The notes beneath the pieces were generated by a model. That model saw nothing but the letters and a program-made list of their open reading frames with translations. It did no database searches and was not told the DNA's origin. A DNA stretch of 64,000 nt from Escherichia coli. Its GTDB lineage: Bacteria > Pseudomonadota > Gammaproteobacteria > Enterobacterales > Enterobacteriaceae. Position 1 is the stretch's first letter; each line of letters opens with the position of its first letter. This document shows positions 45,573 through 47,330 of this stretch, piece after piece. The DNA is taken from assembly GCF_003790525.1 (NCBI RefSeq), contig NZ_CP033635.1; one strand, given 5' to 3'. A program made the position numbers and the translations under genes.

Positions 45573-47330
45573 ATGAAAATGACTTTGCCGTTTAAACCCC
45601 ATGTGCTGGCGCTAATTTGCAGTGCCGGGCTTTGTGCCGCCTCTGCCGGGCTATATATAAAAAGCCGCACAGTGGAAGCGCCTGTGGAATCGCAATCGAC
45701 ACAACAGACTGCGCCTGACATCTCCGCAGTTACGCTTCCTGCAACGGTTTCCGCGCCTCCCGTAACGCCTGCCGTCGTCAAATCTACATTCAGCACTGCA
45801 CAAATAGATCAATGGGTTGCGCCTGTCGCGCTGTACCCCGACTCTCTGCTTTCACAAGTGTTAATGGCATCAACCTATCCGGCAAACGTTGCGCAAGCAG
45901 TGCAATGGTCGCACGATAATCCACTTAAACAAGGCGATGCTGCTATTCAGGCGGTATCTGACCAGCCCTGGGACGCCAGCGTCAAATCACTGGTGGCCTT
46001 TCCACAGTTGATGGCATTGATGGGCGAAAACCCGCAATGGGTGCAAAACCTGGGCGATGCTTTTCTGGCGCAGCCGCAGGACGTGATGGACTCGGTACAA
46101 CGATTGCGGCAACTGGCGCAACAAACCGGTTCGCTAAAGTCATCAACTGAACAAAAGATCATCACGACAACGAAAAAAGTCGTACCGGTAAATCAGCCCG
46201 CCAACGCCCCTGTTACACAATCAAATACCGTTTCTACGTCCAGCCCCGTCGTCGCAGAACCTGCACCGACCGTAATAACCATTGAGCCAGCCAATCCGGA
46301 TGTGGTTTATATTCCGAACTACAACCCAAACGTGGTTTACGGCAGTTGGGCCAATACCGCTTATCCGCCAGTTTATCTGCCGCCGCCAGCCGGAGAACCG
46401 TTTGTTGACAGCTTTGTGCGCGGATTCGGCTATAGCATGGGCGTTGCTACCACATACGCACTATTCAGCAGCATCGACTGGGACGACGACGATCATGACC
46501 ATCATCATCATGACGATGATGATTATCATCACCACGATGGCGGTCATCGTGACGGTAATGACTGGCAACACAACGGCGACAACATCAATATCGACGTCAA
46601 CAATTTCAACCGTATCACTGGTGAGCATCTTACTGATAAGAATATGGCATGGCGGCACAATCCAAACTACCGTGATGGTGTGCCCTATCATGATCAGGAT
46701 ATGGCAAAGCGGTTTCACCAAACCGATGTCAACGGCGGCATGAGCGCCACGCAGTTACCTGCTCTATCGCGCGACAGTCAGCGTCAGGCAGCAGCAAGTC
46801 AGTTTCAGCAACGAACACACACTGCGCCAGTCATTACGCGAGATACTCAACGTCAGGCTGCGGCACAGCGATTTAATGAAGCGGAACATTATGGGAGCTA
46901 TGACGACTTCCGCGAGTTCAGCCGTCGCCAACCACTGACCCAGCAACAAAAGGACGCTGCTCGTCAGCGTTATCAGTCGGCCTCGCCTGAGCAGCGCCAG
47001 GCAGTCCGCGAGAAAATGCAGACTAACCCGCAGAACCAGCAGCGAAGAGAGGTAGCGCGTGAGCGTATTCAGTCTGCAACTCCCGAACAGCGCCAGGTGT
47101 TTAAGGAAAAAGTACAGCAGCGCCCACTGAACCAACAGCAACGTGATAACGCCCGCCAGCGTATACAATCGGCATCACCTGAACAACGTCAGGTTTTTCG
47201 GGAGAAAGTTCAGGAGAGCCGCCCACAACGTCTAAACGACAGTAACCATACTGTCAGGCTGAATAACGAGCAACGGTCAGCAGTACGCGAACGTCTCTCT
47301 GAGCGCGGAGCAAGGCGACTGGAAAGGTAA
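45573..47330 (+). CDS. yacH: DUF3300-family secreted protein YacH with His/Asp-rich tract and C-terminal tandem repeats
   Basis: 585-aa ORF MKMTLPFKPHVLALICSAGLCAASAG...; synteny between acnB and lpd. Confidence 0.8.
   Translation: MKMTLPFKPHVLALICSAGLCAASAGLYIKSRTVEAPVESQSTQQTAPDISAVTLPATVSAPPVTPAVVKSTFSTAQIDQWVAPVALYPDSLLSQVLMASTYPANVAQAVQWSHDNPLKQGDAAIQAVSDQPWDASVKSLVAFPQLMALMGENPQWVQNLGDAFLAQPQDVMDSVQRLRQLAQQTGSLKSSTEQKIITTTKKVVPVNQPANAPVTQSNTVSTSSPVVAEPAPTVITIEPANPDVVYIPNYNPNVVYGSWANTAYPPVYLPPPAGEPFVDSFVRGFGYSMGVATTYALFSSIDWDDDDHDHHHHDDDDYHHHDGGHRDGNDWQHNGDNINIDVNNFNRITGEHLTDKNMAWRHNPNYRDGVPYHDQDMAKRFHQTDVNGGMSATQLPALSRDSQRQAAASQFQQRTHTAPVITRDTQRQAAAQRFNEAEHYGSYDDFREFSRRQPLTQQQKDAARQRYQSASPEQRQAVREKMQTNPQNQQRREVARERIQSATPEQRQVFKEKVQQRPLNQQQRDNARQRIQSASPEQRQVFREKVQESRPQRLNDSNHTVRLNNEQRSAVRERLSERGARRLER
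46959..47246 (+). repeat. Three in-frame 96-nt tandem repeats inside yacH
   Basis: Units ARQRYQSASPEQRQAVREKMQTNPQNQQRREV / ARERIQSATPEQRQVFKEKVQQRPLNQQQRDN / ARQRIQSASPEQRQVFREKVQESRPQRLNDSN. Confidence 0.85.

Follow-up and report, generated by a model that had tools for sequence, protein, structure and literature searches.

The Asp/His-rich tract of Escherichia coli YacH, read as a short DUF3300-family turn with lineage-specific expansion

In the 64,000-nt stretch of Escherichia coli contig NZ_CP033635.1 analysed here (the window), yacH encodes a protein with a 36-residue tract rich in Asp and His. This tract, at the C-terminal edge of the DUF3300 domain, is best read as a short turn which has undergone lineage-specific expansion; selection appears to hold its composition and reading frame and not its sequence or length. 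We would put at somewhat less than one in two (about 45%) the probability that it is a hairpin loop, grown by slippage and selected for its composition, which likely acts as a low-specificity chelator of divalent cations in the periplasm. The tract is an ordinary low-complexity feature, and nothing about it overturns current understanding. The gene and its larger features are as follows:

45573–47330 (+): yacH coding sequence, 585 aa plus stop (ORF list)
45573–45647 (+): putative Sec signal peptide, aa 1–25, MKMTLPFKPHVLALICSAGLCAASA
45795–46571 (+): DUF3300 domain (Pfam extent), aa 75–333
46962–47249 (+): three 32-residue tandem protein repeats (RQRYQSASPEQRQAVREKMQTNPQNQQRREVA and two relatives) in the basic C-terminal tail

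The YacH of the window is 100% identical to the product of yacH as annotated in E. coli SMS-3-5 (NC_010498.1), and the gene is flanked by acnB and lpdA, both on the minus strand. YacH matches Pfam PF11737 [DUF3300] with 263.1 bits against a gathering cut-off of 25 (E 2.5e-78). This match, above the curated gathering score, covers aa 75–333 and profile positions 2–227 of 227, and its end falls inside the Asp/His tract. The domain is laid out as a helical N-terminal part (aa 75–184), a variable linker (approximately aa 200–232) and a small C-terminal part with strands (aa 233–301), the last running into the tract. AlphaFold2 pLDDT values are above 90 at aa 71–200 and 231–270, and 73–89 over aa 271–300. 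Purifying selection acts on the entire gene, dN/dS against K-12 being 0.135 overall and 0.03–0.06 in the folded parts. There is no NCBIfam model for YacH, nor was a solved structural relative of DUF3300 found in searches which included the PDB by sequence; relatives of DUF3300 at E<=1e-3 number 9562 among 50% representatives.

The sole strongly hydrophobic stretch of YacH, scored in 15-residue windows, is aa 9–25, and an A-x-A motif read from the sequence (A-S-A) precedes the likely cleavage site. Signal peptides have been reported for DUF3300 proteins (PMC4653623), and YacH is probably exported to the periplasm. At the other end of the protein the tail (aa 396–585) has a calculated net charge of +16. 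Alignment shows that the copy number of its 32-residue repeat varies among E. coli alleles; YacH is 585 aa long in the window, 617 aa in K-12 and 634–662 aa in other E. coli alleles.

The tract itself, its core and the strand which follows it lie at:

46476–46583 (+): Asp/His-rich tract, aa 302–337 of YacH, 36 residues, DWDDDDHDHHHHDDDDYHHHDGGHRDGNDWQHNGDN (translation)
46482–46538 (+): tract core, aa 304–322, DDDDHDHHHHDDDDYHHHD, with 10 Asp, 8 His and 1 Tyr; site of the in-frame E. coli indels
46581–46610 (+): Asn/Asp-alternating strand NINIDVNNFN closing the loop, aa 337–346, conserved (family alignment and AlphaFold2)

An earlier note, made from the letters of this DNA, had placed a His/Asp-rich tract of YacH at 46477–46575. 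Its peptide is encoded exactly, but the interval starts 1 nt late and ends 8 nt short. The tract accounts for 10 of the 19 His and 14 of the 39 Asp of YacH, HHHH and HHH runs among them, and its H+D density is far above chance expectation: the peak in any 20-residue window of YacH is 18, as against a mean of 5.9 and a maximum of 10 in 5000 shuffles of the protein. Its 36 codons comprise GAC (nine), CAT (seven), GAT (five) and CAC (three), the rest being a few GGY, AAY, TGG and others.

Based upon the AlphaFold2 model, the tract is predicted to be a disordered loop joining two strands (aa 299–301 and 338–341). The pLDDT across it, by 10-residue block, is 70, 50, 45 and 69, and secondary structure is nearly absent from it, apart from short helical turns at 304–306 and 330–333. 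Values recover to 83–94 just downstream of the 338–341 strand. The NINIDVNNFN strand is unchanged across E. coli alleles and has the family consensus (D/N)VNINVNRYNN in alignments of 103 family representatives. The geometry is presumably that of a hairpin loop.

Among the 93 family representatives which could be scored, 9 residues is the modal length counted from the first Trp up to the strand (e.g. WGGCNWGGGD); in the YacH of the window it is 34. Tracts with more than 50% H+D occur in only three representatives, all of enterobacterial type, and in one unrelated protein (P0173). We recovered 28 species-level loci, 27 labelled Enterobacteriaceae and one mislabelled, and in addition Rahnella. 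All 28 and Rahnella carry an expansion of 17–34 residues at this position, and in all 28 enterobacterial loci it directly follows an invariant 'IDW'. The earlier note had named conservation among YacH homologs as the check on the tract; its presence at this position is conserved in these loci, a point in favour of selection for composition, but its sequence, length (17–34 aa between species) and His count (1–11) drift. Buttiauxella agrestis has a single His in the tract, Yokenella three and Escherichia 9–11, with at least one in each of the 28 loci.

What is kept is composition. Over 775 residues the species tracts are 33% D, 24.5% H, 17% G, 12% N, 8% Y and 2% W, these six together making up about 96%, and E, A, V, Q, R, P and L contribute only about 3.5%. 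Outside the tract the same orthologs are just about 47–57% identical. Synonymous codons for D, and likewise those for H, are interchangeable across species, and this free use of both codons points to a constraint at the level of the amino acids and not of a DNA repeat.

The tract might instead be regarded as a functionless low-complexity insertion, produced by replication slippage in a permissive surface loop, its D/H/N/Y composition reflecting the NAY mutational neighbourhood and the need for a soluble, disordered, in-frame filler. In the genetic code a change at the first codon position is enough to turn any of D, H, N and Y into any other. Most DUF3300 proteins have the short turn, and proteins of other lineages (P0249, P0214 and P0259) have unrelated G/W/Y-rich low-complexity insertions at the same site, so that the site simply tolerates insertions; the free drift of tract length, order and His count would follow from this view as well. 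Against it, the six-residue composition stays at about 96% across genera with flanks at about 50% identity, and neutral drift of GAY and CAY, codons with about half of their single-nucleotide neighbours coding for E, A, V, Q, R, P or L, should bring in many such residues. Furthermore, the tract has been kept at least since the common ancestor of the sampled Enterobacteriaceae and Rahnella, with no reversion to the short turn among the sampled enterobacterial species. We regard a functionless insertion as somewhat doubtful.

Alleles within E. coli were compared using the full-length ones from 120 listed clusters and three fetched loci. Among the full-length alleles listed, in-frame indels give tract lengths of 23 to 44 residues; these indels include loss or gain of H, DH, DDDYHHH and HDDDDYHHHDGGH, and a duplication of DHDHHHHD. 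A common allele has Glu (DWDDEDH), and H>R, H>Y, D>N and D>G are found elsewhere; the tract is therefore broadly tolerant. A rule of strict Asp, never Glu, which we had considered since Glu is absent from 29 species-level loci, is rejected by that common allele. In Salmonella Typhimurium yacH is inactivated in most strains, in several lineages, via an 8-bp deletion within the tract, and the gene is therefore dispensable there. This deletion, fixed in S. Typhimurium lineages, is the sole known tract frameshift. The tract as a mutational hotspot, in a gene which S. Typhimurium has inactivated, again suits a functionless insertion.

At the DNA level the repetition of the tract is compositional, at the codon level. 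Tandem Repeats Finder (minimum score 30) reported no arrays in 45500–47400, which rules out a clean microsatellite; the tract consists of a family of 24-nt imperfect direct repeats at a spacing of 9–15 nt. One imperfect inverted repeat was found:

46495–46529 (no strand assigned): ATGACCATCATCATC / GATGATGATTATCAT, 87% complementary

It arises since the ATG repeats within (GAT)n have (CAT)n as their reverse complement, and on DNA folding it can form a hairpin with a 9-bp stem, which may promote indels in the tract. Self-similar and self-complementary DNA of this kind favours slippage, as the view of a functionless insertion also holds. As a selected structure the hairpin was rejected: the stem is present but its stability is no greater than that of shuffles (z -1.17), and it is thus a by-product of composition. 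A search of Rfam with 45200–47450, both strands, gave nothing reaching a gathering score.

Two long open reading frames overlie the tract:

46282–46743 (+): +1-frame ORF within yacH, 153 aa, rich in I/M/T (ORF list)
46461–46721 (-): antisense ORF within yacH, 86 aa, rich in V/I/M (ORF list)

The earlier note had attributed both to repetitive gac/cat/gat codons, and six-frame translation bears this out at the same coordinates. Shifted by one base, (G/C)AY codons become AYN, that is, I, M or T, and on the opposite strand RTN, that is, V, I or M; the two frames are open because neither kind of triplet can make a stop. The note had called both ORFs antisense, which applies to 46461–46721; that at 46282–46743 lies on the same strand as yacH. 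Both are by-products of GAY/CAY codons and are unsupported as genes. Their I/M/T/V-only products are without independent support, and there is no coding support past the absence of stops. Far longer ORFs in non-coding frames are common in the window, one of 503 aa lying opposite acnB.

These frames and the Salmonella deletion might be taken to mean that the tract DNA is a phase-variation (contingency) switch or the host of a real overlapping or antisense gene. The 8-bp deletion does turn yacH off in several S. Typhimurium lineages, two alternative frames are stop-free, and the +1 ORF is read through in frameshifted database proteins such as P0122, a frameshifted yacH which continues to the same stop. 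We find either proposal hardly credible. The triplet unit keeps the frame, every full-length E. coli allele compared has in-frame indels with variants that are all multiples of 3 nt, and there is no tandem array by Tandem Repeats Finder. The open frames are fully explained by the arithmetic of NAY codons. A promoter scan of both strands found no site inside yacH and a single hit upstream (45321–45349, minus strand), and the three terminator-like hits equal the shuffle expectation; with the lack of an Rfam gathering score these too speak against an overlapping gene.

The earlier note had likened the tract to metal-binding histidine-rich segments, and the case for such binding is one of resemblance. 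His runs with Asp are the chemistry of the SlyD C-terminal tail, the ZnuA loop and the His stretches of UreE and HypB. With 10 of its 36 residues His and 14 Asp, and with pLDDT values of 45–70, the tract has the make-up of a flexible His cluster. It shares with the SlyD tail, the ZnuA loop, the ZinT N-terminus and UreE, HypB and Hpn dense His together with acidic residues and Gly, and with His-rich metal-binding tails and loops generally the form of a segment, predicted to be disordered, on a folded domain, whose length and sequence vary while composition is kept. ZnuA and ZinT are moreover periplasmic, as YacH would be by its putative export. It differs from such loops in that its acidic residues are almost all Asp and not mixed Asp/Glu, in that some orthologous tracts hold only 1–3 His, in that no metal-handling partner, transporter or enzyme lies near yacH, and in that regulation of the Zur, Fur or NikR type was not detected. 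Since His counts run from 1 to 11 across orthologs, a function dependent on His would hardly be general. In the PDB the tract had sequence matches only to FLAG-plus-His tags in BRIL/GPCR fusion constructs (best E 0.003). It amounts to a naturally occurring 'DDDD + HHHH', like FLAG (DYKDDDD) joined to poly-His; this resemblance is a coincidence of composition and not homology.

The locus and its upstream region yielded no genomic or regulatory link to metals, which is a further point for a functionless insertion. No metal-related neighbour or partner gene occurs at the yacH locus (acnB, lpdA). In crude consensus scans upstream of yacH, which may pass over weak sites, the best Zur box scored 12/22 (equalled in 54% of random windows) and the best Fur box 12/19 (equalled in 23%). 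CpxR and marbox consensus scans of the same region likewise gave background-level scores, and the published effects of CpxR and Rob could be linked to no site there. Literature searches found no paper tying yacH to metals and no binding data; the phenotypes in print have to do with protamine and with regulation by CpxR and Rob, not with metals. A yacH deletion survives protamine better than the wild type, and yacH mRNA drops on exposure to protamine or cecropin (PMC9600279).

The calculated net charge of the tract is -12.4 at pH 7.5, -6.2 at pH 6 and -2.4 at pH 5. One might therefore suppose an electrostatic or pH switch, in which the loop (about -12) docks on the basic tail (+16) or on cationic antimicrobial peptides and is released on acidification by protonation of its ten His. 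Enteric bacteria are exposed to wide swings of external pH, and their periplasm tracks these. Besides the calculated charges, the protamine phenotype fits a protein which attracts polycations (PMC9600279). This argument is purely inferential, and the phenotype belongs to deletion of the whole gene and is not mapped to the tract. His-poor tracts such as those of Buttiauxella and Yokenella would not switch, and AlphaFold2 gives no confident contacts, pLDDT being 45–70 in the tract and, over much of the tail, mostly under 70. A switch of this kind is distinctly unlikely.

The reading which we prefer, a slippage-grown loop selected for its composition, would run as follows. In most DUF3300 proteins a few residues link the Trp-containing strand to the Asn/Asp-alternating strand (...LWGGCNW-GGGD-VNINVN...). 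This turn would, in the Enterobacteriaceae and at least in Rahnella, have grown to a loop of 17–44 residues through triplet slippage and first-position changes of NAY codons (D=GAY, H=CAY, N=AAY, Y=TAY). The resulting loop, almost exclusively of Asp, His, Gly, Asn and Tyr and disordered by prediction, would have a charge strongly dependent on pH, because its ten His titrate near pH 6. Its most likely activity would be the reversible chelation of Zn2+, Ni2+, Cu2+, Co2+ and possibly Ca2+ in the periplasm.

DUF3300 (PF11737) genes have been described upstream of DUF2950 (PF11453) genes as co-localised, signal-peptide-bearing genes of Proteobacteria which are induced in rhizobia (PMC4653623). YacH is a clear PF11737 member, and in Raoultella, Kluyvera, Citrobacter and others, among them Atlantibacter, Buttiauxella and Yokenella, the yacH ortholog at the acnB–lpdA locus is directly followed by a DUF2950 gene. 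Such a gene is present in loci L012–L034 and is partial in S. enterica arizonae. Unlike these, the window and all Escherichia loci are without it; in the window yacH ends just 70 nt from lpdA, and blastn found no DUF2950-like DNA in 5,426 complete E. coli genomes. The module differs from YacH also in that the Asp/His tract is an enterobacterial addition, a Bordetella-labelled MAG having GRGS there. A link between DUF2950 loss and tract length or His count is unsupported, as Atlantibacter and UBA5654 keep the partner with 8–9 His. A more elaborate proposal, which we think unlikely, is that the loop is a selected, evolvable element for cation buffering or sensing in the periplasm; it would have originated in the Enterobacterales within the DUF3300–DUF2950 envelope module and become longest and most His-rich in Escherichia after loss of DUF2950, and the metal- or pH-dependent loop of YacH, by then a stand-alone envelope protein, might modulate interaction with polycations, a possible basis of the protamine phenotype.

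Several consequences follow for those who work with this gene. In two other frames the tract gives rise to long but spurious ORFs, by which gene callers and human readers can be misled, and as a frameshift hotspot it accounts for the yacH pseudogenes of Salmonella Typhimurium. It should also stick to IMAC resins, so that YacH would turn up as a contaminant in IMAC. The protein is part of the E. coli 'y-ome', and DUF3300 is a large uncharacterised family whose members are probably exported; if the loop does bind metals, this would provide the first biochemical handle on DUF3300 in enterobacteria together with a simple testable phenotype.

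The tract lies in yacH, whose sequence in the window matches the yacH annotated in Escherichia coli SMS-3-5 [NC_010498.1] at 100% identity; there its neighbours are acnB and lpdA, each on the opposite strand.

45573–47330, plus strand: yacH, ATG start, 585 codons (ORF list)
42774–45371: acnB, neighbour of yacH in the window
47401–48825: lpdA, neighbour of yacH in the window

Pfam assigns residues 75–333 of YacH to DUF3300 (PF11737; E 2.5e-78, whole profile length covered); no NCBIfam model matched the protein. Its sole strongly hydrophobic segment, residues 9–25 followed by A-S-A, would fit a Sec signal peptide, and YacH is probably exported; signal peptides have been described for the DUF3300 family (PMC4653623). 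The C-terminal tail (residues 396–585) has a calculated charge of +16 and contains 32-residue tandem repeats (QSASPEQRQAVREKMQTNPQNQQRREAARERI; window 46962–47249, residues 464–559), none of which was seen at the DNA level by TRF. Their copy number varies by E. coli allele (585 residues in the window, 617 in K-12, and 634, 648 or 662 in others), and one 662-residue allele, P0024, has an additional 45-residue duplication upstream of them.

Translation of 46476–46583 gives exactly DWDDDDHDHHHHDDDDYHHHDGGHRDGNDWQHNGDN, residues 302–337 of YacH. The earlier note described this His/Asp-rich peptide accurately, though its coordinates, 46477–46575, start 1 nt late and end 8 nt early. Of the 19 His and 39 Asp residues of YacH, 10 and 14 respectively fall in the tract; the densest 20-residue window has 18 His or Asp, against a mean of 5.9 and a maximum of 10 in 5000 shuffles of the protein. 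Its codons are GAC (nine), CAT (seven), GAT (five) and CAC (three), with a few GGY, AAY and TGG. Tandem Repeats Finder detected no array in the tract DNA; a repeat search returned an imperfect 24-nt direct-repeat family and several inverted repeats, the latter arising because (CAT)n complements the ATG repeats within (GAT)n. The 9-bp hairpin that results does not exceed composition-matched shuffles in stability (z -1.17).

An AlphaFold2 model built with the family alignment (mean pLDDT 72.6) exceeds 90 over residues 71–200, which are helical, and 231–270, and reaches 73–89 over 271–300. Four 10-residue blocks covering the tract have pLDDT 70, 50, 45 and 69 and hardly any secondary structure, between short strands at 299–301 and 338–341; the downstream flanks are confident. 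The tract is thus predicted to be disordered. Its calculated charge falls from -12.4 at pH 7.5 to -6.2 at pH 6 and -2.4 at pH 5, and a putative pH or electrostatic switch is one possible reading of it.

Two further ORFs had been ascribed to the tract's codons, and six-frame translation bears this out. Both had been called antisense, which holds for the second and not for the first:

46282–46743, plus strand: +1 frame of the sense strand, inside yacH (ORF list)
46461–46721, minus strand: antisense, inside yacH (ORF list)

GAY and CAY shifted by one base read AYN (I, M or T) and on the opposite strand RTN (V, I or M); both frames are open because such triplets never form a stop, and the other frames are full of stops. 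Longer ORFs in non-coding frames are common within the window. No promoter was found inside yacH, three terminator-like matches equal the number expected from shuffles, and Rfam supports neither ORF. We treat both as by-products of the codons rather than as supported genes. The stop-free +1 frame means that frameshift alleles or sequencing errors can give long spurious proteins. P0122 and P0159 are frameshifted yacH products through this ORF (MTIIIMTMMIIITTM...) deposited as proteins in public collections, P0122 reading through to the stop of that frame.

The tract region was found in 5416 of 5426 complete E. coli genomes, at ≥95% identity in 5321. Among the best 120 protein clusters it is 29–39 residues long, alleles differing by loss or gain of H, DH or DDDYHHH and by point changes (D>E, D>N, D>G, H>R, H>Y). 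The shortest tract, of 23 residues (in MEI3A-1023 and FCI55), and the longest, of 44 (SSGw1, with DHDHHHHD duplicated), are both in frame. Against K-12, dN/dS is 0.135 for the whole gene and 0.03–0.06 for the folded DUF3300 parts, so purifying selection acts on yacH. At 0.25 its dS is well over that of acnB (0.10) and lpdA (0.05), making yacH a high-divergence island between two very conserved genes; the linker at residues 196–235 (dS about 1.07, dN 0.20) suggests that allelic lineages here are old or that this segment has recombined. In E. coli E69 (CP089930.1, 5098–5866) yacH is split 3' of the tract, at the equivalent of gene nt 1105–1112 or so, by about 768 nt, a size that suggests a candidate IS1-type element.

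Scanning a single genome from each species gave 29 loci, 27 of them labelled Enterobacteriaceae (Escherichia species, Atlantibacter, Salmonella enterica arizonae, Dryocola, Buttiauxella, Raoultella, Kluyvera, Franconibacter, Yokenella, Citrobacter and others) and one labelled Chryseobacterium with enterobacterial sequence. The latter (Chryseobacterium sp. 18061, CACSKA010000010.1) carries an enterobacterial-type yacH and a DUF2950 gene, and P0274, labelled Campylobacter jejuni, an enterobacterial-type yacH; both sequences lie near Citrobacter and Rahnella, and their labels probably reflect contamination or mislabelling. All 28 enterobacterial loci have a tract of 17–34 residues between an invariant IDW and the strand (I/V)N(I/V)(D/N)V. 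Rahnella victoriana (Yersiniaceae) has the tract too. The 775 pooled tract residues are 33% D, 24.5% H, 17% G, 12% N, 8% Y and 2% W, with both synonymous codons of D and H freely used. Composition and position are kept among these loci, while sequence, length and His count (1 in Buttiauxella agrestis, 11 in E. albertii) drift. In the sole non-enterobacterial locus, from a MAG labelled Bordetella, GRGS stands in place of a tract.

Among representatives clustered at 50% identity, an exhaustive HMMER search yielded 9562 relatives (E<=1e-3), of which more than 100 were aligned. The usual sequence at this position is ...LWGG(C)(N/D)W-GGG/GRG/HHG/HRH-(D/N)VNINVNRYNN..., and from first Trp to strand the family mode is 9 residues versus 34 in the window's YacH. 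In this alignment, tracts above 50% H+D occur only in the three enterobacterial-type representatives and the unrelated P0173; P0229 and P0130 likewise have His/Asp-rich insertions, and P0249, P0214 and P0259, of other lineages, G/W/Y-rich low-complexity insertions at the same site. The site therefore tolerates insertions, Asp/His being the enterobacterial solution. The anatomy of the tract is clear: it is an expansion, specific to this lineage and prone to slippage, of the short turn that ends DUF3300. Most DUF3300 proteins have Cys two residues ahead of the conserved Trp (WGGCNW or WGDCDW), where enterobacterial YacH has Ile (SSIDW; window 46467–46484); loss of this Cys and gain of the tract fall in one and the same lineage.

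That the expansion is simply a neutral, tolerated insertion is a strong rival reading, to which the varied insertions at this site lend themselves. Reading frame and composition are kept as sequence drifts, and although some half of all codons one nucleotide away from GAY/CAY encode E, A, V, Q, R, P or L, these residues account for no more than about 3.5% of the tract, among genera about 50% identical elsewhere and with synonymous codons free. The genetic code and the cross-species composition would thus point, indirectly, to selection on tract composition.

For such chemistry the most likely activity would be that of a loop chelating divalent cations reversibly. In its chemistry the tract resembles the tail of SlyD and the loop of ZnuA. 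The metal binding proposed earlier is plausible on composition; against a specific metal role stand the widely varying His count, a Glu-containing allele, the lack of the tract in most of the family, and loss of yacH in Salmonella Typhimurium lineages. No Zur or Fur box for yacH rose over background, no metal-handling gene lies next to it, and a literature search on yacH found no link to metals. Published work places yacH under CpxR regulation, its mRNA dropping upon protamine or cecropin exposure and its deletion mutant outliving wild type in protamine (PMC9600279); a rob mutant shows strong down-regulation of the gene (PMC7537768).

Relative to LT2, yacH is a pseudogene in S. Typhimurium UK-1, 14028s, D23580, SL1344 and 69M through an 8-bp deletion (GATCATCA, Asp284fs) within the tract, at STM0157 codon 284 (PMC3391293, PMC10048834). 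A role of the tract as a hotspot for inactivation of the gene is thus documented.

In rhizobia DUF3300 genes always precede DUF2950 genes, and signal peptides are present in both (PMC4653623). Every non-Escherichia enterobacterial locus (L012–L034) has a DUF2950 (PF11453) gene directly 3' of yacH, at about 5560–6560, the pair occupying the same acnB–lpdA position; in S. enterica arizonae it is partial. All Escherichia loci and the window have none, yacH and lpdA being 70 nt apart (47331–47400), and no DUF2950-like DNA was found in the 5,426 complete E. coli genomes. YacH of E. coli is therefore one half, now orphaned, of a conserved module of two genes. Its tract is an uncharacterised, new example of a familiar low-complexity His/Asp loop.
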